Source: a virus
DNA: 64,000 nt
Strand: one strand, 5' to 3'
IMG/VR virus record: IMGVR_UViG_3300047585_000133
Span: 56,291 to 120,290 of that record
A program made the translations under genes and the position numbers. This document shows, piece by piece, positions 10,501 to 46,149 of this stretch (positions are counted from its first letter, which is position 1; every line of letters starts with the position of its first letter). Under the pieces are notes generated by a model. It did not search any database. It saw nothing but the letters and a program-made list of their open reading frames with translations, and was not told the DNA's origin.

Positions 10501-11150
10501 GCCGAAGGGTCAGCCGGATCTTCCACCAGCAGGCTGTTCTCGAAGAACGACAGCCCGGCGCAGACCTCGTGGATCAGCTTCTCTTCCAGCTTGCCGGTCG
10601 TCTTGTTCCGCTGCCGGATCTTCTTGCCCTTCAGGGCCGGCAGGTGCTTGCAGTACTCGGCCGGGGAGGTGGCCTTGTTGCCGCAAGCGGAACAGGTGGA
10701 CCAGTCCACGTCCACGCCCATGGAGGTACGGTTGACCCGCCCGGCCAGGACCGCCTTCGCCAGCCTGGGGAACCTGACCGCGTCGACTTCGTGGAGGCCC
10801 TCGACCCAGGTGTCCGGACTGCCGTCGGGGTTCCTGTCGCGGTGCAGGGCGACGGCGACGATGACGCCCCGGGCCCGGCGGTGGTTCTCGTTGTTGTGGT
10901 TGACGAAGACCGGCTTGCCGAGGAAGGTCTTGTAGCCCTTCTCGATCTCGCCGGCCGGGAACGTGTCGTGGTTGTCGTTGGTCCGGCTGGAGATCATCCG
11001 GGACCGCAGGTACAGGTAGCCGGGACGCGGCTCGTAGTCGAATGTCACCCGGTGAGCGGCTTTGACGATCCTCCGGACACCGCTTCCGGGGTTGCCGGGA
11101 ACGGCCTGGCGCCAGGCTTCCAGCACCTCCAGCGACGCGTACTTCCGCAC
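7536..11150 (-). CDS. Capsid maturation protease / scaffold fusion with inserted Zn-binding modules (1204 aa)
   Basis: N-terminal KPVFVNH...TSMG...CSACGN...FFENSLLVEDPADP protease-like block; acidic scaffold-like C-terminus; upstream of decoration and MCP. Confidence 0.8.
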   Translation of the reverse strand: MRKYASLEVLEAWRQAVPGNPGSGVRRIVKAAHRVTFDYEPRPGYLYLRSRMISSRTNDNHDTFPAGEIEKGYKTFLGKPVFVNHNNENHRRARGVIVAVALHRDRNPDGSPDTWVEGLHEVDAVRFPRLAKAVLAGRVNRTSMGVDVDWSTCSACGNKATSPAEYCKHLPALKGKKIRQRNKTTGKLEEKLIHEVCAGLSFFENSLLVEDPADPSAFVLGTPDARGMAKAASARTASGEPDFRDYLGNTCRNCGDAVAWTPGNTRHPPRFKHDSARDYDHDPDPVNPQDKSGRMAPSQFGGTHCLFCGDPVRINLHSLSRPGNGWYHEDGMKREGHDPYPADPQKVYDSVPGARAEYDQARSRVEDHMHGLFEQLEGRPLPRSPRGDEHQMPPDPFTASKKTAGVTARPAHCVNCGTEFGSMYTDKKSGSWPHQSMPFLCNDCFYGHMGGAEHTVKGMPVRPMDKGGTQYHPVASDEMDYPEHYETGKIRPWEAGDALKRSQNARSKKPRGRQPKPVRGYGRDPKFDGLALKKDKNGFYVHTHRSRSDSYPTVDDIPDQEIEQIRATGSIGQEGSHCSGCGAQFSGKANPEGKSRSRFIPFLCRDCAPRHAQAPDMNGLAGLPRTRPADVIEGGGRFRQYHPDDHLRQSQNGLQVQAYGETRVPAQVDTLRMDECPVCGEHNVWSGSRCPVCGFVVPPSVFRDPDTSKAGEVRDQLGSAGDVTLPPDAPGAQQPDAQLPAAQVGSGQDADGQLVHPDQIAPDGVPTVQGGDPGETDGQPPDAQEDPLADPSADPGADPEAGEEEQNLEGEGDVPPEDPAGELEDQPGDDLICPACGTTFETDAAAQPGVPCPACGMASLHLIDEEDPGGEAAPPEGAEDPSGDGEEEPEAEQDEEEDKDMPASKTAAALAQAQARRIAELSVQNEVLHAQLSFLASAAGIAPELTEISRRVMRKHADILNPAQPVPDPPEGPPAETTEQALMPGSMDNAGRPGTTPGANAGVPAQMTTTPITPGVEMQTPPATNLVDVTAPVQGTNPSQDGGVPLEQRRIETDVRIDPDPLKAHGPGIGGQGDNGAAFPWILDARGEQGGQPGAQKAASLEADASRRTFASIRLAKMRVQAGLAQGDELAVAEKIEKDASTPTDWIEREISVLSQTPVVQQRQAARPVARTASRSVPSLASVGASASYAPAVMDDLDASDLFD

Positions 11151-11200
11151 GGGTTCCTCCCGGTCTGCTCTCCTCTCTTCCGTGGACCCCGGGACGCCCG

Positions 11201-11229
11201 TTGCTCAATACAGCTTTTCTTGATATTGT
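11201..11229 (+). promoter_or_regulatory. Motif promoter (copy 3)
   Basis: TTGCTC-AATACAGCTTTTCTTGA-TATTGT. Confidence 0.75.
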
Positions 11230-11282
11230 CATCTCAGCGAACGCAGAGCACTGACTACGCAGGCGAAACTGAGGAGAAGCAG

Positions 11283-11849
11283 ATGGCACTCGTACTCGGA
11301 TCGGACAAGACCGGAACCGGCCTCGCGCAGGAGATCGCCGGACTCGCCGCCGGGCGCCAGCACAACCTGGCCGCCTACCTGGTGGACGGCCTTCACCCTA
11401 TTAACCCGGCCCAGGCTGACAGCATCCGCAAGTACCTGGAGGGCCGCCCGCTCCGTGAGACCACTGAGGAGGCGATAGTGGCCAAGGCCGTTCCGCCGGC
11501 CCCCCGGTTCACCTTCGGCGACATCCCGGCCGGCTTCTACGCCACGTCCAACAAGACCGAGAGCGCCAACGACTACAGCTTCTGGAAGGTCACGGTCTCT
11601 GAGAAGAGCGGCTTCCGGAACGTCAAGCGGGTTATCGGCGGCAGCGCCACACCGCTGCCGCAGCTCGTCATGATCGGGAGGCCCCAGCAGACTGCTGCGC
11701 TCAGCGCAATCCTCCGGGCGGGGATCGAGACTTCTGCCGCCCTGTACGCGAAGCTGGAGACGCGCTGCTCCGACTGCGGGCGCCAGCTCACGACCGAAAG
11801 GTCCCGCGAGTACGGGAAAGGCGACATATGCAGGGAGAAGAACGGGTGA
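11283..11849 (+). CDS. DUF6011-like Zn-ribbon domain protein
   Basis: C-terminal CSDCGRQLTTERSREYGKGDIC; RBS GAGGAG. Confidence 0.75.
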   Translation: MALVLGSDKTGTGLAQEIAGLAAGRQHNLAAYLVDGLHPINPAQADSIRKYLEGRPLRETTEEAIVAKAVPPAPRFTFGDIPAGFYATSNKTESANDYSFWKVTVSEKSGFRNVKRVIGGSATPLPQLVMIGRPQQTAALSAILRAGIETSAALYAKLETRCSDCGRQLTTERSREYGKGDICREKNG

Positions 11850-25352: not shown

Positions 25353-27626
25353 TCAGCCCCCGGCCGGGGTGTACTTCTCGTAGTCGGCCAGGTGACCGTC
25401 TTCCTCGGTCACTCCCAGCCGGGCGCGCATCCCCACGTGCGGCGGATCCTGGTAGGCGCGGATCGACGGCCCGGACATCCATCCGCCCTTGCCGTCCTTC
25501 GCTTCCACTTCGGAGTCCGGCAGGTGGGCTTCGAGGACGAAGCCTTCGCCGCCGGACGACGCGGCTACTCCTTCCAGGGGCGCTTCGTCCACTGCGCGGG
25601 CGAGGGCGGCCATCTTCCTGACCCGGTCGGCCCGGCGGAACAGCGCGCCCTGCTTCGGCATGCCGCGCTTGCCTGCTTTCGGCATGGACCCGCGCTGCTC
25701 GTCGGACTCCGGCGGGCGCTGCGGGTCAGCGTCTTGCTCAGCCGTCTCGCCTTCCGGCGGGGCGTTGAGCGGGCCGCCCGTCTGGGCGTCCATCTCGTCG
25801 GCCATCTGCTGGTCCTCGGGGGTGGGCGCGAGGTCGGGCAGCGGGAGGGGGGAAGCGCCCATCCGGTCGATCATCATGGCCTGGCCCGCTACGGCCGGGG
25901 GCACGCCTTCCACCTGGGCGACCGGAGCGAAGTCGGCCATGAGGTCGGCGGGGACCGGCAGTCCCTGGTTGCGGAGTTCGACGAACGCCTGGCGGCGGGT
26001 ACGGGCCTGGGCGATGATGTCGGCTACCGCCTCGTCCTGGGACCGTTCGCGTTCCTCGTCCAGCTCGATGCCGAGGCCCCGGGTCCGGGTGCGGGCGGAG
26101 ATCGGGATGCCGCTGGCGCGAAGGGCCTCGGTGAACTGGCGGGTGGTGTCCTCGTCCCGGAAGTTCAGCACCTGGCAGGTCAGGTCGGGCACCAGGAGTT
26201 TCGGCTGCTCGGTGATGCGCTTCTCGCCGGTCTCCTCGTCGGTTTCGAGGACTTCCTCCATGATCACGAAGCGGCGGCCGTTGCGTTCCTCGTAGTCGTA
26301 GTGCTCCTGTGCTTCGGCGACGATGAGCATCCGCTGCCTGATGTGCCGCTTCAGCATCTTCTGGTAGCTGGTCATCAGCTGCTCGACCAGCTGCTTGTTG
26401 AGGGCGTCGGCGGCGTAGGTCTGGCCTTCTCCGGCTCCGGTGAGGAATGTGCGCGAAAGTCCGAAAACTTGCAGGACGCGGTCTTCGATGCGTTCGAAGT
26501 CCATGCTCAGGTCGGGCATGTTCTCCCGGCCGAAGACGGACTCCAGCTCGACGGCGAAGTTGTGGATCAGCACCCGGAAGTCCCCGGCGAGGGCGGCGTC
26601 CATGGCCATCTCGAAGTTTTCGAGGTCGTCGTCGGTGGGGATCCACGGGACCGACGTGCCGAGGTCGGTGGCGCTGGCACCGAGTTTGGCCAGCAGCAGC
26701 GGGGTGTAGAGCCGGTCGGCGATCGAGTCCAGGGCGGTGTTGAGCATCTCCTGCTGGAGCATCGAGCGCATCGCCCGGGTCAGCAGCGGCAGCCCTCTCA
26801 GGTTGAAGGTGTCGCCCTTGAACTTGAGCTGCCGCAGCAGGATGTTGCTGACCGGCATGAAAGCGTTCTCGGCCGTGTAGGCGGCCAGCTCCGGGTACTC
26901 CTGGACGAGCTTGTTATATTCCCAGGCGGGCTGGCGGGTGGTGAGGATCTGCCGGATCGTCCACGGCAGCCGGGTGAAGTACCGGGGTTCCTTCAGGAAC
27001 GGGCTGCGCTCGACCTTGATGTCGTCGGAGTTGAGCAGCTCCTCGTCGTCCCAGATTCCCAGGTCCTCGTTGAAGGTGGCGAACGGCCACGCCTCGCCCG
27101 TGATGTAGTACTCGCGGCCGATGTCGACGAGGAATTCCGAGTAGTCCAGGCCGTCGTCGCCGAAGAACAGGTCCTCGTAGAACTCCGTCAGCCGCTGGTC
27201 TTTGCATTCGAGCTTGGCGCCGACAACAGGGAACTTGGAGAAGATGTCGATGCAGGAGCCGACGATCGGGTCCGTCTGGTAAAGGAGTCGGCAAAAGGCT
27301 CTGACCTTAGCCAGTTCCTCGTTCTGGCTGAAGTCGTAGGGAAGGTTGTTCTGGCGCCAGTAGAAGAGCGGGTCTCTGGGCCTGCCTGTAGCAAACTGGA
27401 TGTCGCTGAACCCCGACCCGCCGGCTCCGCCCGTCGAGTAGCCCGTACGGCGGCCGACCGAGGCGGTACGTGCGTTGGCCCGGCGGTTCTTACGGGCCTC
27501 CAGCACTTCGGGGGACATCTGCTCGGCGGAGGCCGCCCCGATGCCCATGGTGCGGCCGAGCTGACGGGCGACCGAAGCCTGCCGTGCAGCACCCGACCCC
27601 GGCTGGTACGCGACCCTCATCCGCAA
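25353..27626 (-). CDS. Portal protein (cluster C-like)
   Basis: RLLYQTDPIVGSCIDIFSKFP, GEAWPF, RGLPLLTRAMR, DSIADRLYTPLLLAKLG; head-module position. Confidence 0.85.
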   Translation of the reverse strand: MRMRVAYQPGSGAARQASVARQLGRTMGIGAASAEQMSPEVLEARKNRRANARTASVGRRTGYSTGGAGGSGFSDIQFATGRPRDPLFYWRQNNLPYDFSQNEELAKVRAFCRLLYQTDPIVGSCIDIFSKFPVVGAKLECKDQRLTEFYEDLFFGDDGLDYSEFLVDIGREYYITGEAWPFATFNEDLGIWDDEELLNSDDIKVERSPFLKEPRYFTRLPWTIRQILTTRQPAWEYNKLVQEYPELAAYTAENAFMPVSNILLRQLKFKGDTFNLRGLPLLTRAMRSMLQQEMLNTALDSIADRLYTPLLLAKLGASATDLGTSVPWIPTDDDLENFEMAMDAALAGDFRVLIHNFAVELESVFGRENMPDLSMDFERIEDRVLQVFGLSRTFLTGAGEGQTYAADALNKQLVEQLMTSYQKMLKRHIRQRMLIVAEAQEHYDYEERNGRRFVIMEEVLETDEETGEKRITEQPKLLVPDLTCQVLNFRDEDTTRQFTEALRASGIPISARTRTRGLGIELDEERERSQDEAVADIIAQARTRRQAFVELRNQGLPVPADLMADFAPVAQVEGVPPAVAGQAMMIDRMGASPLPLPDLAPTPEDQQMADEMDAQTGGPLNAPPEGETAEQDADPQRPPESDEQRGSMPKAGKRGMPKQGALFRRADRVRKMAALARAVDEAPLEGVAASSGGEGFVLEAHLPDSEVEAKDGKGGWMSGPSIRAYQDPPHVGMRARLGVTEEDGHLADYEKYTPAGG

Positions 27627-28231: not shown

Positions 28232-28589
28232 CGCCGTACGGTCCGTTCATCTGCTCGTGCATCCGGTTCATTACGTTCCGGTCGTTGAGGTGCTTCACCA
28301 GGTTGGGAAACCACTGGCGCGGGTCGTGCCCGAGCGGCACGGACATGGGGTAGCCGGCGTTGCGGTGCTGAATGACGACCTGCGGGCCTTTTACATCGTC
28401 AGGGCCGAAAGCGCCGGGATCGGTCACGGGAAGCAGCGTGTGGCCGGTTTCCATCCGGACGCTGTGCGGCCCGTTGGGAGTGAATGCCGAGGCGAGCTGC
28501 TGCCGGAAAGCGACGTTGTTCCCGTAGTCTTCCAGACTCTGACCGGAGTGCCGCTCCGGGCTGGTGAAGTGGTAGTCGTTGTATCCCAT
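28224..28589 (-). CDS. Hypothetical protein (ETGHT module paralog)
   Basis: METGHT...PLG...VMNRMHEQM. Confidence 0.65.
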   Translation of the reverse strand: MGYNDYHFTSPERHSGQSLEDYGNNVAFRQQLASAFTPNGPHSVRMETGHTLLPVTDPGAFGPDDVKGPQVVIQHRNAGYPMSVPLGHDPRQWFPNLVKHLNDRNVMNRMHEQMNGPYGDE

Positions 28590-30258
28590 CAGCTCCTCCC
28601 GAACTCATCCCACGGGTCAGTCTCGTCCGGCTCCGGCGGCGGCCACTGGTGACTGACGTCCTCGTGAGCATGCGGCACCGCGACGTGCTCGTGCCGGGGG
28701 ACCGAGTGCTCAGCATCATGATGACGGGGCAGGACGTTAGCTGCTTCCGGCCACTCCGTCGCCTCGCGCACCTCGTCGGCACTCCACCCGTGATGGCTCA
28801 TCATGTGCAGCGGCAGGACTTCGCGCGTATGCGGGTCGTAGTGGAGCATGCTCGTGACAACGTTCCAGCGGTTAGCAATAAATCCCGTATTGCTGGAGGC
28901 GTCCGGAGACCCGTACCAGGGCTGGCTGTCGCGCTCGGCGTGCTCTTCCTCGTGCAGGCTCGTCAGGGTCCGCTGAGGGATCATGTGCGCCGTGCTCAGG
29001 CCGTGGTCGTCGCGCATGTGCTCCCGCAGCTCCGTCAGGCTTCTCAGCGGCCCGTGGGCGCTGCGGCGAAAGGGCGGCGGCTCGCGCTGCGGGAGGCGAA
29101 CTTGCCGTAGAGAGAGCAGCCCGGCTGGTCGTGGTCCCCGGTCGTCGTGCACTCCAGGGCATGGTACTTGGGCCGGTCGGCGGTGTAGTCGTGGTAGCCG
29201 TCGTACCACTGCTTCGGCTCGCCCCGGGTGTCGGCCTTCTCCAGGGGACTCGGGCCGTAGTCGTAAACCCCGTTGACGGCCCGCTGGCCGGCGTTCCACC
29301 CGCGCTGGTAGTGGCCCCGTGCGGTCTTCTCCTCTTCGCCCCGGGCGGCCGTACGGCTCGCACTGTGGAACGGGGTGTCCCGGAACACCTGGTTCGGGGT
29401 ATTCCACCACTGGTTCGGCGACTCTCTTTCGGGCATGCCCTCGCCGCCCCGGTCCGGGGTGGTGGCGTGCACGAACGACCGGGCCGGGTCGCGGGCAAGC
29501 TGCCGCTCGGCTTCCTGGCGGGGGTCGCCGTCCTGGCCCAGGTGCATGAGGTGAATCTGGGAGGAGGCGGGGTGGGTGATCGTGCCGTACCAGTCGCGGC
29601 CTGTTCTGCCGATGGACACCTGGTGCCCGCTGGACAGCGTCCGGTAGGGCCGGGCATTCGCGGTCACCCGCTTCTTCGCTCCCTCGGCCCGCAGCCGGGC
29701 CATGACGCGGGGATCGGCGCCGGAGGCGGCGACGGCCATGTGCCGGACAAGCTGTTCCTCGTTCAGCTGCTGTCCTGCGGTACCCCGGTAACGGAGAGAA
29801 GACTTCTTCTTCGACTTGCCCTTCGGCGGGGGCGGCGGACCGCTATCGTCGTCGTCACCGGGCGGCGGCTCAGTGCCGCTGTCGTCGCCCGGTCCTTCAA
29901 ACGGCCCGTCTCCCGGCTCGGAATCCCCGTGAGGCGGGCCGTCTCCATCCGCAGGGGCTCCGTCCGGGCCGACCATGCCGGGATCGACGAGGCCGCCGTC
30001 CGGGCCGACGTCGGAGGGAGCACCAGGACCCATCGGCATCTGGGGCATACCGGGAAAAGCGGGCTGAACCCGGACGATGTAGTTCTGGCCGCGTTAAACA
30101 GAAGTCACACCCGATCGTCCCGTCAGACCGGCCGACTACCTGACCGCTTCCACAGAACGGGCTAAACAATGGCTGGTGACCAGAGGGTCGCCCGGATCGT
30201 GGGCTTCCTTGATCAGACCAGCCGTGCCAGCACGCAGGTTGCTTGACTTCATTCGCAT
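28589..30258 (-). CDS. Zn-ribbon head-associated modular protein split by 5-nt and 7-nt extra segments and a -1 frameshift site (recoded gene or pseudogene)
   Basis: Removing 30161-30165 and 30091-30097 gives HCPFCGSGQVVGRSDGTIGCDFCGQNYIVRVQPAFPGMPQ; C CCT TTC at 29074-29068 links to the frame ending at 28589. Confidence 0.65.
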
Positions 30259-30301
30259 CACCCCCTTGAAACCGGGGCCGACTCGCGGCCAGATCATCCG
30301 T

Positions 30302-30427
30302 CTAGTTCTTCTGCGGCTGACCACTGACCTGGTCGCCAGACGGGGACGCCGGACTGCCTGACAGCGGGTCGCCCGGGTCATGGGCCGTCCTGGTGCCGAT
30401 ACCGCGCGGCCGGGTCATGGTGCTCAT
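30302..30427 (-). CDS. 41-aa ORF duplicating the N-terminus of the next gene (RTAHDPGDPL)
   Basis: Hand-translated MSTMTRPRGIGTRTAHDPGDPLSGS... Confidence 0.45.
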   Translation of the reverse strand: MSTMTRPRGIGTRTAHDPGDPLSGSPASPSGDQVSGQPQKN

Positions 30428-30439
30428 GACCCTTCCGCG

Positions 30440-30688
30440 TCAGAAAACCTCGCGGGCACCGGACTCGTCGAGGCCGTAATCAGCAGCGCGTACCTCGACG
30501 TCTGCTTTGCGGAGCTTGCGGGCGTCCCTGGCTGCGTCCCGGTACGCGCTGGCGACGTAGAGGAACCAGTCCGACAGCTCTTTCCTTGCTTCGGTGAAGG
30601 TGGCGAAGATCTCGCTGCCGTCTACCGGGTCGTCAGTCGGGAAGACAGTACCGTGCTGGCCGTCAGCCATGAAACCCCAGTTGGTCAC
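30440..30688 (-). CDS. Hypothetical protein
   Basis: ORF track, GTGA overlap. Confidence 0.6.
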   Translation of the reverse strand: MTNWGFMADGQHGTVFPTDDPVDGSEIFATFTEARKELSDWFLYVASAYRDAARDARKLRKADVEVRAADYGLDESGAREVF

Positions 30689-30936
30689 TGCTCCTCCGCC
30701 GGGTACCAGAGGGCGCCCTTCGGGTTAAGTTCTGCCCGGACGCGCCCCTGCTTCTCCAGTTCGCACAGGAGCGACAGCACGAGAGTCAGCGGCGCGGAGG
30801 AAGCCAGGATCTCAGAACGGGCCGGGTGCTCTACCGGAATATGAAATCCCACCTGGAAGGCTGTCAGTCCCGGCTTCTCCGCCAGGATCGCGGCGACGGC
30901 CTGGAGCTGCCGCTCGCGGAGCTGAGCTTTGTTCAC
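30685..30936 (-). CDS. Winged-helix-like small protein
   Basis: PGLTAFQV...LLCELEKQGRV...ALWY. Confidence 0.55.
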   Translation of the reverse strand: MNKAQLRERQLQAVAAILAEKPGLTAFQVGFHIPVEHPARSEILASSAPLTLVLSLLCELEKQGRVRAELNPKGALWYPAEEQ

Positions 30937-31250
30937 GGGACCGGCCCCAGGTACAGTGCGTCCTCGCCCAGGCTAACCAGGTACTTGGTGATTTCCTCGT
31001 GCTGCCGGGAGATGAACGACTCCAGGTTCTCGCGCTCAGACCGAAGCTGAGCCGACTGTGCAGAATAAACGCGGTCGCCTCCGGAGGAGCGGTAAGCATA
31101 TTCGAGTTTTTGCTGCTCCCTCGTTATGTCAGCCAGCCGGTCTTCGGTACGGCTGGCCGCGCGGTACAGCGACAGAACGTGCTGGAGCTGCGCTTCAACT
31201 CGTGCATCCGGGTGCGGCTCGCGGGCCTGTGTCTTCCTTCTCGGGAACAT
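30933..31250 (-). CDS. Coiled-coil hypothetical protein, leaderless
   Basis: TAGAAT-6-ATG on minus strand. Confidence 0.6.
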   Translation of the reverse strand: MFPRRKTQAREPHPDARVEAQLQHVLSLYRAASRTEDRLADITREQQKLEYAYRSSGGDRVYSAQSAQLRSERENLESFISRQHEEITKYLVSLGEDALYLGPVP

Positions 31251-34292: not shown

Positions 34293-34997
34293 GTGACGGC
34301 GAAAGGCAAGGACCAGCGCGGCCCCTGGGGCGAAGCGACGGCCGAGGCCACGGTGGACGAGGCGCTGAGGCTCATGAAGCCGACGAGGCACTGCACCCCC
34401 GAAGTGCTGGCTCTCCTGGCCGCCGAACTCCCCGGGATCTCCGGGTCCGTCTCGGAGATCGCGGCCATGAAGCCGCTGCGGCTGGCCTCTCGCCTGATCG
34501 GGATGCAGTTCGTGGACGAGGACGACCTGTTCGACATCGCCAGGGACGTGGACGAGGACGACCTGTTCGACATCGCCAGGGACCTGATCGCCGGGTTCCA
34601 GGCGATGCTCGGCCCTCAGCCTGAACCGGAAGCCAAGCCTGAACCTGAGCAGCCCAAGGCGGCGCCGGCCCCTGAGCAGCGCGCCCGGCAGAAGTCGGCT
34701 CGTACCGAGGAGGAGTACCGCAGGTTGCTGCTCGGCTCAGCCCAGGGACGCAAGAGCACCATGAGCGGCGACATCCGGCTCGGGGCGACAGTCATTGAGT
34801 CATTCGAGACTATGAGCGGGGACGTAACCCTTGACGGCACCATCGTGCTCAGCGGCGGCAGCACCATGAGCGGTGACCTCCGGGGTTCTGCCTACATGCC
34901 GCGCGGTGCCAGGATCTCGACGATATCCGGTGACGACCGGCTCGACGTGCGCGTGGAGTCCTATGAGGAACTCGCCCGCCTGGCAGGCCTGACGTGA
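34293..34997 (+). CDS. Hypothetical protein with TMSGD beta-solenoid repeats (DUF4097-like)
   Basis: STMSGDI/ETMSGDV/STMSGDL/STISGD. Confidence 0.6.
   Translation: MTAKGKDQRGPWGEATAEATVDEALRLMKPTRHCTPEVLALLAAELPGISGSVSEIAAMKPLRLASRLIGMQFVDEDDLFDIARDVDEDDLFDIARDLIAGFQAMLGPQPEPEAKPEPEQPKAAPAPEQRARQKSARTEEEYRRLLLGSAQGRKSTMSGDIRLGATVIESFETMSGDVTLDGTIVLSGGSTMSGDLRGSAYMPRGARISTISGDDRLDVRVESYEELARLAGLT
34511..34583. repeat. Perfect 36-bp tandem duplication (VDEDDLFDIARD x2)
   Basis: CGTGGACGAGGACGACCTGTTCGACATCGCCAGGGA twice. Confidence 0.9.
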
Positions 34998-35464
34998 GCG
35001 GCCGGTGGAACCTGTACTGGTACGAGGCCCGCGCGGTGATCGGCTGCGGAGAGGCGTACCTGCCGCTGGAAGACCTGGAGGCGGCGCTGCGGGAACTGCG
35101 GTGGCAGGACACCAGGAACCTGAACGTGGGTGCGGCTAACAGCAGAGAGGCCCGTGTCGTCATCGTGACAAGGGCACGGCACTCAGGCGAGGCAGCCGAG
35201 CGCCTCGTGGCGGGACTGGCTGCTGCCGCGCCGCGCGGCTGGAACTGGGCTCAGGCCGAGGTGGAGGCCCGCCGTGTCAAAGAGGGCATCGTCCGCTGGC
35301 CGAGACTGGCGGTGAACCCGGCGCTGGGGGAGCAGACGTGCGCCAGCGCAGCTACGTGGCTGGCCGGGCGGGCGGCGACGACAGAAGCCCCGGCGGCGGA
35401 GACGCTGGAGCTGCTGCGGATGTGCGGGCTGACCACCAGCGCGGGCAGGGAGGAGAACCTGTGA
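34994..35464 (+). CDS. Hypothetical protein
   Basis: ORF track, GTGA overlaps. Confidence 0.55.
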   Translation: MSGRWNLYWYEARAVIGCGEAYLPLEDLEAALRELRWQDTRNLNVGAANSREARVVIVTRARHSGEAAERLVAGLAAAAPRGWNWAQAEVEARRVKEGIVRWPRLAVNPALGEQTCASAATWLAGRAATTEAPAAETLELLRMCGLTTSAGREENL

Positions 35465-35809
35465 GCGCCTGGAACATCATGGGCTTCACGTCGGTCGAGC
35501 AGATGTACGTGGTCGAAGGGGCGCTGCGGCTGGAAGTCAGCTACGAGGGGTTCGTCATCATGGTGGGGACGGACTTCATCCGGCAGCAGGCATCCGGGTA
35601 CGAGACCCCGAACCAGTTCGCTTCCGTGTGCCGGGACCGGGACGGGCGCCGGGCGCGGGCTCTTGAGCGGTACTTCGGGTGGGAGCAGGGTCTGTGACGC
35701 AGGAGCCGGAGCGGCTGTCGTCCTGCTGCGGTGCGCCTGTCACGGTGAAAGGCCGGACGACGCAGTACTGGGCGTGCACGGGATGCGGGCAGCCGTGTGA
35801 CGCAAAACC

Positions 35810-35838
35810 TGTCTCAATACAGCTTTTATTGATAAGAT
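35810..35838 (+). promoter_or_regulatory. Motif promoter (copy 6)
   Basis: AATACAGCTTTTATTGA-TAAGAT. Confidence 0.7.
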
Positions 35839-35865
35839 TCTGGCACGAGCCATTACGGAGGAATC

Positions 35866-36234
35866 ATGAACGGGTACGCGCTGCTGCGCTACGACATCAA
35901 AGAAGGCACGATGACGTCGCTGGGCGTCTACCTGGCCGCTGACACGGCGGTAGCCAACGCCGAGTACGACGTAAACGCGCGCCGTGGCCTGCGGGCCGGT
36001 GCTGACGGCCAGCGTCTTGAGCCGGCGGAGGAAGAGATCTCCCTGGACTGGCAGGCTGCCGGGGACGAGCCGAGCGGCCTCGTTGCCTGCGACTGGTGGG
36101 CGGTCAGCGACTACGGCTCGTACTACATCTCCACGGTCGAGGTAGTCGGGGAAAACACCTGGTCGGCCGCCGGGAAGGCTATGTCCCTGCTGCGGCAGGT
36201 GCTGACCTCGATCGTGCGGCACGGGGCGGCGTGA
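35866..36234 (+). CDS. Hypothetical protein
   Basis: GGAGG RBS downstream of motif promoter. Confidence 0.65.
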   Translation: MNGYALLRYDIKEGTMTSLGVYLAADTAVANAEYDVNARRGLRAGADGQRLEPAEEEISLDWQAAGDEPSGLVACDWWAVSDYGSYYISTVEVVGENTWSAAGKAMSLLRQVLTSIVRHGAA

Positions 36235-37289
36235 ACCCGGTGCACGAAGAAGAACTGACCCCGGTATTGCAGATGGAAGCCGAGTACGCCCCGTATATCG
36301 GTTTTTCCTTTACCTGCGACTTCCGCGTGCTCGGTGATGAAGACTGGGAGTGGCTGCGTCTCCGGGCTGTCCCCGGGACAGATATCAAAGTCTGCGCGGG
36401 CAAGGTAGCCGGCACGGCAGAGATTACCTACGTGGACGAGATCCTGCGGGTAATCGGGCTTCGCGGGACGGCGTGATGACCAGGGTGCCGCCCACCGGGC
36501 TGTACGAGTGTCCGTGCGGCGAGTCCCACGTGCTGGACGCCGTACTGGGAGAGTTCATCGCGGACCTCGGGCCGGACAGGCTGACGGAGACCGTCCAGGG
36601 CACCTACCTGGTACCCCGTGTCTACATCTTCGCGCACGGTATCAAGGGCAAGAACGTCGCGAGGCTGGCATCGGTCTACGGGTGGGAGCAGGCATGAACG
36701 GCATCGTGAATATCCTGCTGGGACAGCGGGCGGACGGCAGGGCCGCCGGAAAAGACCGGAGGCCGTGGGCTGAGGGCGAGGAGGTTACCATCCTCGCGTG
36801 CGATCTCAGAACCGGGAAGCCGGTACGGGGATCGCTTGTGGTGCACTGCTCAGTTGCCGAGGCCGACGGCTTCTACGTCGCTGTCCTCGTCGGCGACGGC
36901 CGGAAGGCTGCCTACGAGGTATTCCGTGCGCGTACCGGCTGGGACGTCCGTCCGGCCCCCAGCCCCTGGCGGCTGCACCACGGGAGCTGGAAGCGGTGAG
37001 CCGCCAGCTGACGAAAGGCGAGCGGAACGAGGCCCGGCACCTGCTCCAGGAACTGTCGGAAACCGCTCGCCTGGTGCGGAACGCGGTCGAGCCGGAAACC
37101 GGCGTCTTCGTGCTGACGGCCGAGCAGTGGGAACAGCAGTGGAACCAGATGACGCTGGCGCTCGAAGTCTTCACGGCTCAGGTGAGGGCGAGGCAGTGAC
37201 TGGCCGGCCGCACTGCCCGGTGCTGGTGGACCGGGCCACGGGCCTGACACCTGATCACGTGGAAACTGTCAGGGAATGGCTGAAGACGC

Positions 37290-37318
37290 TTTAAGTTTAT
37301 CAATAAAAGCTGTATCCT
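37290..37318 (+). promoter_or_regulatory. Motif promoter, inverted spacer (copy 7)
   Basis: TTTAAG-TTTATCAATAAAAGCTG-TATCCT. Confidence 0.65.
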
Positions 37319-38509
37319 GGTCTCCGAAAGGGAAATCGACCAGAGGGGACAGCGATGCCGCGCAAGCCAGACCCGGACCCCGGCAAGCCGTGTGAGTTCG
37401 GCCCGCCGGGACGGAATCACCGGGCGTCGTTCAATGTCTTCGCCGGCTTCGAGGCGCGGAAATCCTGCGGGCAGCACCTCCAGGAGGCGGTCCTGTGGGC
37501 AATCGGCATGAGCGGGGCTCCCGCCTCGGTCTACGACCTGAAAGCGAGGACCTGATGGCAACGGTCACGATCGGCGGCATCGAGGCGGCAGCAGACATCG
37601 AGGAAATCGACGGCGTGTTCACGTGCGAGCTGAAGGCCGCCGCCGAAGAGGACCTGAAGGATTTCATCCGCCTGGCCGTGCCCGGCGCCAGGGCTGTTAT
37701 CGCATACGACGGCGGCGACGAGTACGAGTGCCGCGTGACCATTACCGACCCCTGGGACTACGTGACCGTGGTGGAGATCTGATGGATCCCGTGTGCCCCC
37801 GGTGCGGCTTCCCCGCCGAATCCGACGGCCAGGGCGGGCAGCAGCACGTCAGCCGCGCCGATGCCCTGGTATGCGGCCTGCTGTTCGGCGGCGGCAGCAT
37901 GCTGGACTCCCTGCTGGACGAGGAGAGCTGACATGAGCGAGTTCCTGCTGGTCGAAGTAGACGGCGAATCGGAAGACAGCAACGAGCTGGAGGCTTACCT
38001 CTACAGCCTCGGGAACGTGATCTCGGTCAGCGTGCACGGTCCGGGATGCTGCTGCAAGAACTGCCCGTGGGACGGAAACCATGGCTGACAAAAAGGCGCT
38101 GTGCGGCTACTGCGCGAAAGAACGCTCGTGGACGGTCACCCGCGACGTCCCCGGCTCCCCGGTGACTGCTGCCTGCTCGCAGCACCTGGCGGTCGCCTGC
38201 GCCAAGACGGCCGAGGTCACGGGAGCGGCATCGGTGACCGTCTACCTGGCCGGCAGAGGCGGGGAGACCGGGAACGGACAGCTTCCCGCAACTGAGCACG
38301 TCCTGGAACAAGTACGGCGGGTCGGCGCTCACTCGGCGGAACCTGAGACTGCCCATTCGATGGAGGACGCACTTTACCTGGGCGTCCTCGGGGCAATCGC
38401 CCAGGGAGCACCGCAGCCGTCAGTCCTGGCGGCGGCGGCCCTGACGACGCAGCGGTACGGCTTCGAGAGACGAGCCGGACGGTAAAGCAGATCCCGTGGG
38501 GGGACCGAA

Positions 38510-38671
38510 ATGAGCGAGGACCAGATAAAGGAAAACAGCACGGTAGAAACGCTCGCAACCGGGCGGCGCGGCACGGTGCAGTACGTCACCGCGAACGGCA
38601 TGGCAGCCGTGCGGTTCGCCGGCGGGATCGCCGAGGCGGTTCCCGTGGGGGAACTGAGACTGATCGAGTAG
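38510..38671 (+). CDS. SH3/KOW-like small protein 1
   Basis: Hand-translated TVETLATGRRGTVQYV...AAVRF. Confidence 0.6.
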   Translation: MSEDQIKENSTVETLATGRRGTVQYVTANGMAAVRFAGGIAEAVPVGELRLIE

Positions 38672-38729
38672 GAGGAACAGTGGAAGAGGACGCGGAAACG
38701 GGGATCGCCGAGGACCAGGTGAACGGGCC

Positions 38730-38897
38730 GTGAGGGACATCGAGCCGGGCGACGAGGTCGTTGTGACTGGGACCGGGGAGCACGGAACCGTCCAGTACGT
38801 CATCAGCGAGCCGCAGGCAGCTGTCACGCTGGAGGACGGCAGCACGGTCGTCCTGGAGGTAAGCCTGCTCGACCTGGCCGGGGACGAAGCGCCGTGA
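38730..38897 (+). CDS. SH3/KOW-like small protein 2
   Basis: IEPGDEVVVTGTGEHGTVQYV...AAVTL. Confidence 0.6.
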   Translation: MRDIEPGDEVVVTGTGEHGTVQYVISEPQAAVTLEDGSTVVLEVSLLDLAGDEAP

Positions 38898-39064
38898 GTC
38901 TCGCCTGGTGCCATATCTGCCCTGATGATCTCGTCGTGGACGGGGAAAGCGGCCACATGGGTACCGTCATCGAACTGAAGGGCGAGTACGCCCTGGTGGA
39001 GGTGGCGCTGCTCGGGCGGCACTGGATCCTCGCGGACGACCTGGAACTGGCGGCAAGAGCGTGA
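38894..39064 (+). CDS. SH3/KOW-like small protein 3
   Basis: DDLVVDGESGHMGTVIELKGEYALVEV. Confidence 0.55.
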   Translation: MSLAWCHICPDDLVVDGESGHMGTVIELKGEYALVEVALLGRHWILADDLELAARA

Positions 39065-39465
39065 AACCGCGATCGGTCCTGGTTCTGTGGATTGTCACCA
39101 GCGACCCGGAGCTTGACGTCCTGGCCGTCGACCCGCAGGAGCTGGGTATCGGCATCCCGGACGACGTGTTCGCCTACGCCTGCGGCATGTGGAAGCGCAA
39201 CGCCCGGGTACTGGTCACTACCCGGCGCACCGGGCTGCTGAACGGGCGCTGCGACGCGCTCCTCGGGCACGTCACCGCCGAAGAGGCCATTGCGGTAGAA
39301 GCGGCCCTGGCCGCACTGGTTTCATGAGCGCATGAAGCTGAGCGAGGACACGCGGCCGTGCGCCACGCCGGGATGCGGGCACGAGGGCCGCGTCCACGAC
39401 CACTACAACCTGTTCACCTACTGCGGGAAGACCGGGTGCCCGTGCCGGAAATGGAAGCGGTCGTA

Positions 39466-39495
39466 TAGCTGGAATACAGGGTTTATTGGTATCGT
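39466..39495 (+). promoter_or_regulatory. Degenerate motif promoter inside ORF 39332..39736 (copy 8)
   Basis: AATACAGGGTTTATTGG-TATCGT-7-GTG(39503). Confidence 0.55.
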
Positions 39496-40420
39496 CATTG
39501 CTGTGAGCGAGGGAGCGGGAGGACGGGTGCGGTACACGACGTGGCTGAGGCTGTGGCTTCAGGAGCTGTGGATCGAGGCAACTACCCAGCCGGTGCGGCT
39601 GCTGCCGCACTCTCACCGGCCGGAGTCTCTGGGCCCGAACGGCGGGTACAGGTGCACCAGGTGCGGATCGTTCTCGGCCCGGGTGCAGCACAAGGGAATA
39701 CAGCAGGCCGAGAGGATCAGGAGGCAGTTCGCGTGAACTGGGAGAAGATCAGGCTGAAGCTGATGCGGCTCGTGCCGCACGGTTACGTCCCGGCCGGGAA
39801 CAGCCGCTGTGCGCGCTGTTCGTGGAGGCTGGCGTGAGCAGTATCGAATGGGGCGTCAGGAGCAGGTCCAGGAGAATCGGCGGCCAGTGGCACGAGTACT
39901 ACTTCGCCAGCCAGGAGGAGGCCAGGGCCGAGTACAGCCACCTGCTGGTGAACCTGGATAACTGGGATATCGAGTTCGGCTACCGCACGGCTAAGGTCGA
40001 AGCCGGCCCGTTCACCAGGTACAAGGCTCCCGCGAGCGGGTCCGCGCAGCCCGAGGAAGACCCGGAGGTTCTCGCCGACATCCTGTCTCTCGTCGGCGGC
40101 GTCATGATCCCGGCTGAGGTGATCGCCGTCTGGACTCCGGCGGACAGGAAACTGGCCGCTAAGTGGGCGGCGGCCGAGCACCTGCACGCCTCCGACAACG
40201 AGGACGTGCAGCGGATCCCGGAGCCGGGCTTCGTGAAGCGGGCCGCTGAGATCTGCGCGAGTCCCGCCATGGCGCAACTCGCCGTGGAGAACTGGACGTC
40301 CTGGCTGGCCGGAGTGCAGGAAAGCGCCGGGGGAGCCGGGCCGCGTACCACCGGGGCGATCGGAATCGCCCGGGACGCGATCACGGGCCTGCTGGTGCTG
40401 CTGAAGGACAGGCAGCCGTC

Positions 40421-41110
40421 GTGACCGCCGAGATGCCCGAGCCCGGCGCGGCGACGCCGGGGCACGGCCACGTCGTGCCGCGACCGGACGGGGCCAGGGC
40501 CCGGTGCGGAGGGCCCGCGCTGTGCAGCGCCTGCGCGAAGGAGCTGGCCGCGCAGCAGCAGTCCGGCGCGACGCCGGGACAGGCGGCGGCGTGGGATGCG
40601 TGGTACGCGGCCGACCAGGCGAGTCGGACGATGGCGCAGGGCTTCAGCGAGTCCAAGTACGAGGCGATGCGCCGGGCGTTCCTCGCGGGCACCGAAGCCC
40701 AGGCCGCCATCGCCGCCGCAGCGCCAGCCGCCCCGCAGCCCGCGCCAGGCGACTGGTGGATCTGCGACGGCCCGCTGCCGGACGCCCGGAAGCTTCTCGG
40801 CCCGTTCGCGACACAGGAACTCGCACTCAACGTCCGCACCTACGTGGAGAAAGCCGAGAAGCGCTCAGACCTGTGGGTGGATGACGAACCGCAGCAGCCG
40901 CAGCCCGCGCCCGGCCCGTGCCCCGGCTGCGAGTCGCTGCGCCGCCAGTGCAGCGAGATCGCCGGAGAGGTCGGCATCCTCGCCGGGGCACTAACCGAGA
41001 TCCGCGACAACGACCACCCGTACGGCTCGTACGCCCGCGACAAGGCGCGTGCGGCCCTTGACGTCCTCCACGGACTCGCCCCGCAGGCCGCGCCGGGGAC
41101 GGCACCGTGA
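40421..41110 (+). CDS. Mosaic hypothetical protein with PQPAPG linkers
   Basis: GHGHVVPRPDGARARCGGPALCSAC N-terminal motif; repeated linkers. Confidence 0.65.
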   Translation: MTAEMPEPGAATPGHGHVVPRPDGARARCGGPALCSACAKELAAQQQSGATPGQAAAWDAWYAADQASRTMAQGFSESKYEAMRRAFLAGTEAQAAIAAAAPAAPQPAPGDWWICDGPLPDARKLLGPFATQELALNVRTYVEKAEKRSDLWVDDEPQQPQPAPGPCPGCESLRRQCSEIAGEVGILAGALTEIRDNDHPYGSYARDKARAALDVLHGLAPQAAPGTAP

Positions 41111-41760
41111 ACGAGGTCAGGGGGAGAGCACTGGGGCGGACTGCCGCCAGGCTGCTGACCGCCGCCGTGGGACTGCTGTGCCTGGGGGCTGCCGCCGGGA
41201 TGTTCGTTCCTTCCGCCGGGATGATCCTGGACAGGGCCGGCTGGGTCCTGTACTTCGCCGCGATGACCGACACCGTGGTTTTCCTTGCCTGGAACACCCA
41301 GGCGAGGCTGGCGGCCCGGATGCTCCAGAACGCGAGCAACCTGAGAATGATCCGGGACGGGGCGCACCGCCGTCAGGTGCACGAGGACCGGATCCGCGAC
41401 TCGCTCGGCTCAGGCGGCCTGAGTGCGGCCGGCCCGTATGCTGCGATGCGGCAGGCCGTCGCGGCGGGCACGTTCAGCGTCAACGGGACGCCCTATCCCT
41501 CTGACCGGGCTGCCCTGTCCGGAACCGGGAGCCTCACCAGGCTGTCCGGTACCGGGAACGTCACCAGGACGAGTCACACGGAGTGGCGGGACCAGCAGGG
41601 CACCCTTCTCAGGTCCGAGACCGTCACCGAGACCGCCGGGCCGCCCGGAAGAGCCTTCTGCGCGAACTGCGGCCGGGAGAAGCACGGAGTCGGCTACGAG
41701 CCCGGTACGGTCTACTACTGCACCGGGTGCGGCGGCGGTCCCGTAGTGAGCTGCGGCTAG
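41107..41760 (+). CDS. Membrane protein with C-terminal Zn ribbon
   Basis: Two TMs; CANC...CTGC. Confidence 0.6.
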   Translation: MNEVRGRALGRTAARLLTAAVGLLCLGAAAGMFVPSAGMILDRAGWVLYFAAMTDTVVFLAWNTQARLAARMLQNASNLRMIRDGAHRRQVHEDRIRDSLGSGGLSAAGPYAAMRQAVAAGTFSVNGTPYPSDRAALSGTGSLTRLSGTGNVTRTSHTEWRDQQGTLLRSETVTETAGPPGRAFCANCGREKHGVGYEPGTVYYCTGCGGGPVVSCG

Positions 41761-41854
41761 CCGAAGATTCTTCAGCTAACCCTCGGAACACCTTGACATT
41801 TCATTCTGCCAGACCCAGCTAAAACCGAAGAATCTACAGCGAGAGGAACAGATC

Positions 41855-42124
41855 ATGACCGCAGAAGCCCCCGAGGCCGTCGAGATCCCCGAAGGCTGCG
41901 GCCTGCTCAGCACCCTCGACAAGACCGGCGACACCCGCGTGATGTGGGACCGGGGAAACGACGACGAGGTGGCGACCGCCCAGAAAACGTTCGACGACCT
42001 CACCAAGAAGGGCTACCTCGCCTACAAGGCCGAGGGCAAGGACGGCCGCCAGGGCGAGCAGATCCGCAGGTTCGACCCGAAGGCCGAGCGGATCATCCTG
42101 GTCGCCCCGCTGGTAGGAGGCTGA
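41855..42124 (+). CDS. 89-aa protein ending in VGG (candidate ubiquitin-like modifier)
   Basis: DKTGDTRVMWD...FDPKAERIILVAPLVGG-stop; RBS AGAGGA. Confidence 0.75.
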   Translation: MTAEAPEAVEIPEGCGLLSTLDKTGDTRVMWDRGNDDEVATAQKTFDDLTKKGYLAYKAEGKDGRQGEQIRRFDPKAERIILVAPLVGG

Positions 42125-42127
42125 CCA

Positions 42128-42952
42128 GTGCCGATGCCAGCGGCCGTAACCAGGCCAGATCCGGGCGCGGTGATCACCGCAGATGCCAAGAGCGCCGCCT
42201 TCAGTGCCGGGGCCTCCACGTGGACCGGCTGGAACACCGACGTCTACGGCAACTGCTACGGGACCGCGACCACCAGCGCTTCGACCACGATCATCGTCAA
42301 CGGGACATGGAGCGCCTGGAATACCGTCCTGGTCACCGGGAGCACTGCCGCCTCCCAGGCGGGCACTGCCGGGTACGGGATCACCGTCGGCCAGTGGTCC
42401 TCGTGGAACACCGCTTACGAGGAAACCGCCGAGCAGCAGGCCGCACGCGAGGAGGCCCAGGCTGAGGCAGGCCGGCAGGCAGCGGAGCGCCAGGAAGAGC
42501 TGAACGCCCGGTACGAGCAGGAACGGCTTGAGCGCGAACAGGCTAAGGCCAGGGCCCTGGAGCTGCTGCGCTCGCTGCTCACGGGCGAGCAGTGGGCCTC
42601 CTACCAGGAGAACGGCTGGTTCGAGGTACGCGGCTCCAAGGGCGGCCGGTGGCGTATCCGCAACCGGGGCCAGTCCGGCAACGTGGACCTCATGCCGGAG
42701 ATCGGCGGGGAACGCGACGCCTCCTACTGCGCTCACCCGCCGGGGATGCTGCCCGACCCGGATGCCCACGCCGCGCAGATGCTCGCCCTGGTCACCGACG
42801 AGGAAATGTTCGTCAGGACCGCCATCGTCCACTACCGGCGGCCCCCGGATGCCGGGCAGATCCGGCGCGACCGGGAACAGCAGCTCATAGCCACCGCGCA
42901 CGAGCGCGCCCACTTCGGCACCGAGACCTGGGAAGACCCGCAGGCCGCCTGA
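42128..42952 (+). CDS. Partner of the VGG protein: WxxWN repeats, coiled coil, C-terminal CAHP domain
   Basis: Starts 3 nt after previous stop; ALELLRSLLTGEQ...YCAHP...AQMLALVTDE. Confidence 0.7.
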   Translation: MPMPAAVTRPDPGAVITADAKSAAFSAGASTWTGWNTDVYGNCYGTATTSASTTIIVNGTWSAWNTVLVTGSTAASQAGTAGYGITVGQWSSWNTAYEETAEQQAAREEAQAEAGRQAAERQEELNARYEQERLEREQAKARALELLRSLLTGEQWASYQENGWFEVRGSKGGRWRIRNRGQSGNVDLMPEIGGERDASYCAHPPGMLPDPDAHAAQMLALVTDEEMFVRTAIVHYRRPPDAGQIRRDREQQLIATAHERAHFGTETWEDPQAA

Positions 42953-42981
42953 CCGGGTGCGTTAGACGTCTGAGAGTCGCG

Positions 42982-43010
42982 TAGTCAGATACAACTTTTC
43001 TTGATAAGGT
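42982..43010 (+). promoter_or_regulatory. Motif promoter (copy 9), leaderless
   Basis: TAGTCA-GATACAACTTTTCTTGA-TAAGGT-7-ATG(43018). Confidence 0.7.
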
Positions 43011-43017
43011 TTCAGCC

Positions 43018-43326
43018 ATGCGGCCATTCAAGCGCAACGAGCGCACCGTGACCCGGTACTGGTTCCAGGACAGGGACGGCAGCTACTTCCGGACCTGTCC
43101 CCTGATCATGCAGGAGATGGACTGGGCACGCCTGACCTTCCGGTTCGGCCTCGCTGAAAAGCTCCGCGCCGAGTGGCACCAGTGCTGGGACTCGGGCGTC
43201 ATCAGAAAAGCGGAGCTGGAGCCGGGCGATGCCGTGACCGAAGCCGCTCCGTTCCGCGAGGCGTACCCGGACCACCCCGGCCTGTGGATGCTCGACGGCG
43301 CAGACAGCAGGGACCGGCTGCGTTAG
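43018..43326 (+). CDS. Hypothetical protein
   Basis: Leaderless ORF inside repeat-flanked cassette. Confidence 0.65.
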   Translation: MRPFKRNERTVTRYWFQDRDGSYFRTCPLIMQEMDWARLTFRFGLAEKLRAEWHQCWDSGVIRKAELEPGDAVTEAAPFREAYPDHPGLWMLDGADSRDRLR

Positions 43327-45790: not shown

Positions 45791-45808
45791 CACTTCCGTA
45801 AGCAGCTG

Positions 45809-45849
45809 TTGTCGATTATCAAGAAATCCTGTATTGTCGGTCTTGCAAG
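45809..45849 (+). promoter_or_regulatory. Motif promoter, inverted spacer, plus CTTGCAAG (copy 10)
   Basis: TTGTCG-ATTATCAAGAAATCCTG-TATTGT-CGGTCTTGCAAG. Confidence 0.75.
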
Positions 45850-45873
45850 AAACCGGGCAACCAGGAGGACCTG

Positions 45874-46149
45874 ATGCCTTACCAGCTCGTTCAAGACGGA
45901 ACCTACCCCGGCACCGATCTCCCCGTGTTCAAGGTCTACGACGCGGACGAGTACCAGGACCCGGCCGTCAGGGACCCCCGTGCTATCGGCGAAGTCTGGG
46001 GCACCGGGGTACGCGGCGTCACCGGGCAGTTCGTTCCCGCTGGTGTCCGCTGGCAGATCTCCGGTAGCTGGGAGGCATCCCCGCTTTACCCGGCCGGCGC
46101 CTACGCAGACGCCGCACGCGCCATGGTCGCAGCCTACGAAGGACGCTGA
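45874..46149 (+). CDS. Hypothetical protein
   Basis: AGGAGG RBS. Confidence 0.65.
   Translation: MPYQLVQDGTYPGTDLPVFKVYDADEYQDPAVRDPRAIGEVWGTGVRGVTGQFVPAGVRWQISGSWEASPLYPAGAYADAARAMVAAYEGR

Follow-up and report, generated by a model that had tools for sequence, protein, structure and literature searches.

The window analysed here is a 64,000-nucleotide (nt) stretch of viral DNA, the right-hand 64 kilobases (kb) of the linear 120,290-nt IMG/VR record IMGVR_UViG_3300047585_000133 (CheckV 76%), referred to below as G000. The G+C content is 67%. On the minus strand, three to four short open reading frames (ORFs) upstream of the portal gene at 25353-27626 (phrog_2833, E 7e-144), lies a gene for a zinc-ribbon (Zn-ribbon) protein whose coding sequence is interrupted by two short blocks, each beginning with a TTA triplet directly after a cysteine codon. 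The features of this gene are as follows.

30261-30267, minus strand: Shine-Dalgarno-like motif of the working copy, AAGGGGG, 8 nt upstream of ATG 30252; this ribosome-binding site (RBS) and the start are common to the viral contig L117, described below
30166-30252, minus strand: coding piece 1, 29 codons beginning at the start codon and reaching the ...SHC motif; its last codon is the take-off TGT 30168-30166
30161-30165, minus strand: coding gap 1, TTAGC, 5 nt; UUA at 30165-30163, proposed landing triplet AGC at 30163-30161
30136-30138, minus strand: TAG that would end translation 9 codons past the UUA if gap 1 were read straight through with no hop
30098-30160, minus strand: coding piece 2, 21 codons, spanning the ribbon from the first zinc knuckle (PFC) to the second (CDFC), in a DNA frame other than that of piece 1; take-off TGT at 30100-30098
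30091-30097, minus strand: coding gap 2, TTAACGC, 7 nt; UUA at 30097-30095, proposed landing triplet CGC at 30093-30091
29044-30090, minus strand: coding piece 3, 348 codons and a stop, beginning GQNY..., in the same DNA frame as piece 1

Read on the minus strand, the gene runs CAT TGT [TTAGC] CCG TTC TGT ... GAC TTC TGT [TTAACGC] GGC CAG AAC, the last part resuming at GGC 30090-30088. Straight-through translation meets the TAG at 30138-30136 and a second stop, TAA, at 30096-30094, and the 21 codons between the gaps fall in another frame (ORF 29897-30169). The hexamer TGTTTA occurs only seven times on the two strands of the 120,290-nt genome; two of these occurrences are the breaks of the Zn-ribbon gene, a third marks a break in a different gene, and a fourth falls inside a tRNA gene. 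With three of so few occurrences at breaks, the placement is beyond chance. A sequence-only reading of the window had pointed out both inserts, and their positions and letters proved correct in every detail when the sequence was re-read. It had also said that the TAG ends the unskipped frame, as straight-through translation confirms, that about 350 further codons are joined by skipping, where 348 are counted after gap 2, and that the landing xGC matches a Cys codon at two of three positions, as AGC and CGC do with UGY.

Because the record is a metagenome assembly at about 12x depth, the inserts might have been made by a sequencing or assembly error, and the sequence-only reading had listed an assembly artefact among its alternatives. 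A Logan contig from run X1 (peat, the probable source; 10,686 nt, depth 12) shows 0 differences over 28300-31000, the same sequence thus coming from a second assembler. Both inserts recur in a second sample and study, on a 255-nt contig from run X2 (soil) that spans 29931-30185 with 0 gaps and a single change, 30082 G>A. This change replaces AAC with AAT and is synonymous in the frame used past gap 2; three of the four listed differences of the X2 strain inside the Zn-ribbon gene are synonymous. The divergent contig L117, recovered also as L123, is gapped at the same codons. An assembly error is excluded, with next to no probability left to it, and the artefact alternative is rejected.

A protein family of 88 members was collected, 83 of them with the 334-codon ORF as the query and 5 more in a search aimed at longer forms. 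The ribbon, ...AHDPGDPL.TSHCPFCGSG...C.FCG..., is unbroken in 71 of them. A script sorted four of the 88 as intein-bearing, among them P0079, which really has an unbroken ribbon with a variant N-terminal motif; P0030 begins inside an intein. A further nine of the 88, the window's own ORF not counted, have their starts inside the ribbon or beyond it. Residues H25, C26, P27, F28, C29, C44, C47 and G48 are invariant in a 34-sequence alignment. At the DNA level all 10 viral loci are unbroken across the ribbon, and a frame-changing event occurs across it in 0 of 27 loci (viral plus metagenome, some duplicates). Omission of both blocks from the window's gene restores the junctions that are invariant in homologs.

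Read in this way, the gene at 30252-29044 on the minus strand is predicted to encode a protein of about 398 residues that combines a Zn ribbon with a conserved domain; it belongs to the head module of a large actinophage-like virus. Searches of the locus by blastn and tblastn against 50,697 phage records returned no match, and a protein atlas search no usable match; with Pfam and PHROGs, the sole match of the coding pieces was a sub-threshold one, to a Lar-type zinc ribbon. An AlphaFold2 model of the homolog P0004 has a mean predicted local distance difference test (pLDDT) score of 65 and a confident domain at about residues 150-260, with the ribbon at 30-55; Foldseek found 0 matches to this model at E<=0.001 in PDB and BFVD. 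On the minus strand of the window, the Zn-ribbon gene (29044-30048) and the next ORF (28589-29410) overlap by 366 nt. The corresponding modules are joined in one protein in the homolog P0022, and the motif SRRPF is repeated where modules meet.

The ribbon cysteines are encoded by TGC in relatives and by TGT, for all four, in the window. Ribbon DNA is nearly identical in most relatives, third codon positions included; it is strongly recoded toward A/T-ending codons in L104 (VFSW01027403.1), in the intein-bearing locus L114 and, in part, in the window. This recoding could reflect pressure from a homing endonuclease. In P0060 and P0021 the second zinc knuckle reads CDLGFCG as against CDFCG, a two-residue Leu-Gly insertion at the protein level, for which one possible source is a TTA-led block of in-frame length that the gene caller translated; the N-terminus of P0060, ...LVKEAHDPGDPL, is also like that of the window.

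One apparently truncated protein of the family, P0049, was traced to an 8,884-nt viral contig, L117 (the same as L123), whose head-module order matches that of the window down to the portal gene. Its Zn-ribbon gene is gapped at the same two codons, TGT[TTAAAGGC]CCA (8 nt) and TGT[TTAGC]GGG (5 nt), and all four gaps of the two genes fit the pattern TGT-TTA...xGC. The two genes have in common their RBS, their start, an ...GLIKEAHDPGDPL N-terminus and about 60 nt of upstream DNA, from which we conclude that the two gapped 5' modules descend from one ancestor; the rest of the two proteins is only about 46% identical. First pattern scans of the viral contigs for broken sites returned 10 and 6 unrelated chance loci, and their patterns were so strict that L117 was missed. 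Looser TGTTTA-anchored patterns over the viral contigs recovered only the L117/L123 contig.

Codon comparison of G000 with L117 gives 13 identical, 4 synonymous and 1 non-synonymous codon in the last 18 codons of piece 1, 9, 10 and 2 in the 21 codons of piece 2, and 22, 14 and 4 in the first 40 codons of piece 3. In the other two frames, piece 2 shows 1 synonymous to 12 non-synonymous changes and 1 to 11, and over all pieces the other two frames show 0-2 synonymous against 6-18 non-synonymous changes. The predominance of synonymous change in each piece's own frame indicates that each piece is kept under purifying selection in gapped genes. The gap interiors behave otherwise, differing between the two genomes by a 3-nt and a 2-nt indel with the initial TGT-TTA and the final GC kept, as expected for non-coding gaps that are skipped from take-off codon to landing triplet. 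Gap 2 is 7 nt long in the window and 5 nt in L117, and the gaps total 12 nt in the window and 13 nt in L117.

These lengths bear on programmed single-nucleotide frameshifting, in which UUA would be read as leucine, with a shift of -1 at site 1 and +1 at site 2 and about two residues added at each junction. Five nucleotides do equal -1 and seven +1, with gap sums of 12 here and of 6 in a gapped virion gene described below, and rare A-site codons are classic +1 triggers (PMC5009743). The homologous site 2 of L117, at 5 nt, would need a shift in the opposite direction; given this difference and the L117 sum of 13, 5 + 7 = 12 is no compensating pair, and no fixed +1/-1 shift would serve both genes. 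Residues added at site 1 would make CxxxxC of the invariant CPFC knuckle, no slippery heptamer of the form X XXY YYZ is present at either Zn site, and gaps of 8 and 7 nt occupy the same virion-gene site in relatives. The own-frame synonymous change, together with the 2-nt indel in gap 2, also argues against a pseudogene, and likewise against fixed +1/-1 frameshifting. We consider programmed frameshifting unlikely. Two simpler schemes were tried and rejected: compensating frameshifts are ruled out by the stops in the straight frame and by the L117 gap sum of 13, and one long hop taken from the first TGT directly to the last is ruled out in that UUA follows again and the frame is still wrong.

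The three pieces might also be separate polypeptides, the middle one starting, for example, at TTG 30169. ORF 29897-30169 does start with this TTG, and by eye the same TTG is in frame in L117. No RBS precedes TTG 30169, the ORF continues for 66 codons, or 40 in L117, up to the zero-frame stop, and all unbroken homologs make one chain, which leaves separate polypeptides a very improbable explanation.

A genome-wide screen was made by frameshift-aware alignment of 106 genes of the complete relatives G001 and G002 against G000 (portal 88% identical), with an aligner that would pass over gene pairs of more than 1.3e7 cells. Earlier frame-break screens had flagged mostly intergenic regions and off-frame ORFs, which were discarded when the alignments were viewed. 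Just four events were flanked on either side by codons identical at 10 of 10 positions, namely the two Zn-gene gaps and two gaps in a virion gene of G000, and an in-frame TTA stands at the break in all four. The virion gene (tail-tube, phrog_2756, 178 codons) lies outside the window at 27.4-27.9 kb of G000 and contains TGT[TTAC]GAG and CAG TTT[TT]ATC, the latter permitting a perfect UUU-to-UUU slip of +2 with UUA in the A site. Reciprocal screens found the same gene gapped in relatives, as TGG[TTAATTGT]GAG in G002, TGG[TTACCTGG]GAG in G004 and TGG[TTAATGC]GAG in L091; gaps are thus present in this gene in 3 of 13 relatives' loci, or 4 of 14 with G000. The baseplate-J gene (PF04865) of the complete genome G002 has the gap CAA[TTAGCAA]TAC. 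No such event was found in G001, G003, G005, G006, G007 or G008, with 23-83 genes aligned per screen.

Together these make 10 gap sites in the phage clade. At every one, TTA stands directly 3' of the last conserved codon, the landing triplet fits the tRNA of the take-off codon at two or three positions (perfectly at three sites), and the site falls within the first 55 codons of its gene. Two of the perfect take-off and landing pairs, UGG/UGG and CAA/CAA, are in relatives.

Crude gene sets from nine genomes contain 0.12-0.5 TTA per 1000 codons, which bears out the sequence-only reading's description of the codon as very rare. In homology-supported frames TTA occurs 10 times in 21,175 codons, three times at or inside gaps, most of the other occurrences being in leaders or doubtful frames. 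A TTA census based on G+C at third codon positions was dropped as confounded by antisense frames. G000, G001 and G002 encode 39-40 tRNAs each, including Leu(CAA, CAG, GAG) and Cys(GCA) and never Leu(UAA). The G000 array of 39 tRNA genes, without Leu(UAA), lies outside the window at 34908-43097; in G001, ARAGORN made two odd calls, with 4-letter and 2-letter anticodons.

UUA-triggered ribosome bypass of the two short gaps is the best-supported reading of this comparative evidence, and we put its probability at roughly three in four. It is favoured because homologs are unbroken, because each piece is selected in its own frame, and because an indel that is not a multiple of three has occurred inside a gap. 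The sequence-only reading had proposed the same bypass, which now gains comparative support from the unbroken homologs and the second gapped lineage. The mRNA of the gene at 30252-29044 would hold two non-coding gaps, of 5 and 7 nt. At each, the ribosome would hold peptidyl-tRNA-Cys on UGU, with which it pairs weakly, while UUA occupies the A site, and would stall at this UUA, a codon which the phage nearly leaves unused and none of its 39 tRNAs reads. The peptidyl-tRNA would then let go, the mRNA would slide by 5 or 7 nt, and the tRNA would re-pair through its last two bases on AGC or CGC. Reading would resume at CCG or GGC to give a product with the invariant CPFC...CDFC ribbon. We infer the hop itself, its efficiency and its dependence on host tRNA-Leu(UAA) from these features; a link to host development through bldA may be a further consequence.

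Several observations weigh against bypass. The contig from the second sample reaches no more than 2.5 in depth. Should the gaps be recent and of separate origin in the two lineages, the selection signal would be older than the gaps. UUA is rare among phage codons and lacks a phage tRNA, but a limiting tRNA-Leu(UAA) in the host is presumed; a host search with the portal protein among genome contigs gave no match. A BldC-family regulator gene (NF033787; 82 bits, cut-off 77) at 34318-34611 of G000 (L116 319-612) fits an actinobacterial host, and it carries a TTA in its C-terminal tail, where a promoter-like motif overlaps the gene end. This gene seems to use TTA, and UUA may therefore be decodable. 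No stimulatory RNA structure was found round the gaps, fold z-scores of -0.27 and -0.73 being no better than shuffles, and no consistent Shine-Dalgarno-like motif is shared by the gap sites. Finally, the landing triplets of the window match the Cys codon at only two of three positions, where those of the phage phiHau3 are synonymous.

Homologs also bear on where the gaps came from. An intein is inserted exactly between SH and CPFC in P0073, P0088 and P0090, and probably in P0030. That of P0090, whose DNA is in L114, has about 316 residues and starts TGC TTC GGG. Gap 1 sits at this insertion point and splits the Cys codon, appearing as T[GTTTA]GC in the DNA alignment. The window's gaps, of only 5 and 7 nt, contain no Hint splicing domain. 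Full inteins at this site in homologs are one of the outcomes that the sequence-only reading had set against its bypass proposal, and that outcome did occur. We take it as a clue to where gap 1 came from, with no consequence for the way in which the gapped gene is translated, since the window has no more than 5 nt at the site and 5 of the 10 gap sites fall at residues that could not host an intein.

The gene could instead be a dead or dying allele, its inserts being scars, for example of imprecisely deleted inteins, and its remains either a pseudogene or a ribbon-less protein made from the internal ATG 30048. Inteins at exactly site 1 in 4 to 5 homologs are in keeping with this, as are the resemblance of TGT TTA GCC to an intein start (C-F-A/G), a decayed copy of the 5' end just upstream, and gene callers that start the ORF at MPQMP. 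Change between the gapped lineages is mostly synonymous in all three pieces, the 21 out-of-frame codons included, and the gapped allele was found in two samples. There is no Shine-Dalgarno sequence before ATG 30048, and the baseplate-J gene of a complete genome is gapped too. Five of the 10 gap sites do not precede Cys, Ser or Thr and thus cannot be intein scars. A dead allele has a slim chance of being correct. For the intein-scar alternative offered by the sequence-only reading, full inteins do occupy site 1 in homologs, and half of the gap sites are not intein-capable.

Upstream of the gapped Zn-ribbon gene, and of gapped genes in relatives, are the following features.

30302-30427, minus strand: decayed copy of the native 5' end; 22 codons resemble those of P0002, the closest homolog, and are followed by a first zinc knuckle degraded by indels and by a stop
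Upstream ORFs of relatives: AP2 domain, E 3e-6, below the Pfam cut-off
Upstream ORFs of relatives: HNH_3 (E 8e-4) with HTH domains, below the Pfam cut-off
Upstream ORF of L091: HTH_38, E 2e-11, 43.7 bits, passing the cut-off of 27

The tail of the decayed copy aligns to the ribbon DNA of a relative with a score reached in 12 of 500 shuffles, and X2 contigs span 30362-30506, part of the decayed copy's region, with 1 difference each. The locus thus has a gene end with its own start displacing the native one and a copy of the target region, the RBS and start being shared with L117. ORFs with homing-endonuclease features stand directly upstream of gapped genes in relatives and are absent from the gap-less G001. 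Beside the window's Zn-ribbon gene no endonuclease was found in the two neighbouring ORFs scanned, which matched 0 Pfam families, nor in the gene's own pieces.

The arrangement resembles a homing-endonuclease cassette from which the endonuclease is gone. We suggest, less surely than the bypass itself, that the gapped 5' module, RBS and start included, reached this gene as a cassette through homing-endonuclease or intein-driven recombination, and that the gaps would break the nuclease target while the protein stays the same. A broader proposal is that TTA-led micro-gaps are the immunity part of hit-and-run homing cassettes, intein-borne or with a free-standing HNH enzyme, that move between large soil actinophages and replace the 5' ends of conserved virion genes, leaving these readable only by hopping at a hungry UUA. 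With no endonuclease found beside the Zn-ribbon gene among the ORFs scanned and with half of the gap sites not intein scars, we hold this homing origin as a tentative idea, at roughly one chance in three. If true, it would provide an actinophage counterpart of T4 mobA and gene 60, with virion production tied to the UUA-decoding state of the host.

Three further observations come from the same genomes. At about 28455-29207 of G000 (L048 1956-2708, minus strand), an N6/N4 DNA methylase gene (PF01555, E 2e-19) stands between a tail-sheath-like gene and the gapped virion gene, which are adjacent in gap-less relatives. In the minus-strand ORF 7536-11150 of the window (1204 codons), about 55 nt at approximately 10387-10445 are extra relative to G001, split by the aligner into pieces of 25 and 29 nt, and the ORF stays open. 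A motif like ATCAAGAAANCCTGTATTG, probably a phage promoter, precedes several genes at about 11110-11310 (minus strand) and 45800-45950 (plus strand) of the window and at about 3440 of G000; it is shared with relatives and caused false frame-break calls in the screen.

UUA-triggered bypass has rested so far on three terminase genes and one experimental paper. The gaps described here, 10 sites in three genes of the virion modules, extend it to an unrelated phage clade, and we believe that selection on two diverged gapped alleles whose gap interiors gain and lose bases is new evolutionary evidence. They suggest that hops as short as +2 to +8, with landing at two of three positions, may be tolerated, and they link coding gaps to intein and homing-endonuclease target sites. 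Gene callers split such genes, and up to nine more of the 88 family proteins have starts inside the ribbon or beyond it, so recoding of this sort is probably under-counted in metagenomes. The hop hypothesis can be tested directly through defined junction peptides and reporters.

Known systems offer four comparisons. The family's own inteins (P0073, P0088, P0090/L114) hit the same codon as gap 1, between SH and CPFC; an intein of some 316 residues is removed from the protein, whereas the window has a gap of only 5 nt and no Hint domain. The byps of Magnusiomyces capitatus mitochondria are inserts of tens of nucleotides in a eukaryotic organelle and follow no UUA rule. They resemble the present gaps in that bypassed inserts occur in many genes of one genome and that two-out-of-three landing pairing is discussed for them. 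The byps are named in PMC10732093 and PMC5009743.

In bacteriophage T4, the homing element mobA is linked to the bypassed gap of a conserved gene, gene 60 (Manning & Atkins, 2022 preprint; PMC5009743). In that preprint the mobA element has its own start, a new N-terminus and a target copy, its endonuclease is often lost while the gap stays, and the gene 60 bypass is said to protect against nicking. The gap of gene 60 is described in the same sources as 50 nt long; its take-off and landing codons are matched GGA triplets, UAG follows the take-off site, and a nascent-peptide signal and a hairpin at take-off take part. None of these features is seen in the window. Unlike the mobA cassette, the window's Zn-ribbon gene has no adjoining endonuclease gene among the ORFs scanned.

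The closest precedent is the terminase gene of phiHau3, named by the sequence-only reading and seen in the phiHau3 record to contain two 10-nt UUA-led gaps, GGC[TTACTCCGGT]AAG and TCT[TTAACGGTCC]ACG, with synonymous landing codons (GGC to GGT, TCT to TCC). A further citation for these gaps is Smith et al. 2013. In our literature search UUA-led bypass in actinophages was met only in Antonov et al. 2023 (PMC10732093). That paper describes UUA-led blocks of 7-10 nt in 3 of 100 actinophage terminase genes, the gapped large-terminase genes being those of phiHau3, the prophage StrepC.1 and a S. catenulae prophage. It gives as evidence a full-length product in Streptomyces and, after UUA was changed to UAA, a junction peptide identified by mass spectrometry in E. 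coli, evidence that its authors term supportive and not proof; in the same paper, a 5' stem-loop and Shine-Dalgarno-like stimulators are only proposed for phiHau3.

The Zn-ribbon gene resembles the phiHau3 gene in having an in-frame UUA right after the last conserved codon, a short block that is not a multiple of three, two gaps in one gene, junctions kept in unbroken homologs, and a high-G+C phage in which UUA is very rare. The differences concern gap length (10, 10 and 7 nt in phiHau3-type genes, 5 and 7 nt in the window), landing (synonymous codons in phiHau3, near-cognate AGC and CGC for Cys in the window) and the genes affected (terminase in phiHau3; Zn-ribbon head-module, virion and baseplate-J genes in this clade). 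phiHau3 is a 50-kb R4-like phage, whereas relatives of the window have genomes of about 160 kb with 39-40 tRNAs, and the evidence is experimental for the phiHau3 type and a comparative selection signal, known from sequence alone, for the present gene. On these features we place the window gene in the phiHau3-type "UUA coding gap" class (Antonov et al. 2023), of which its very short hops, two-of-three landing, occurrence in several virion genes and tie to an intein site are variant features.

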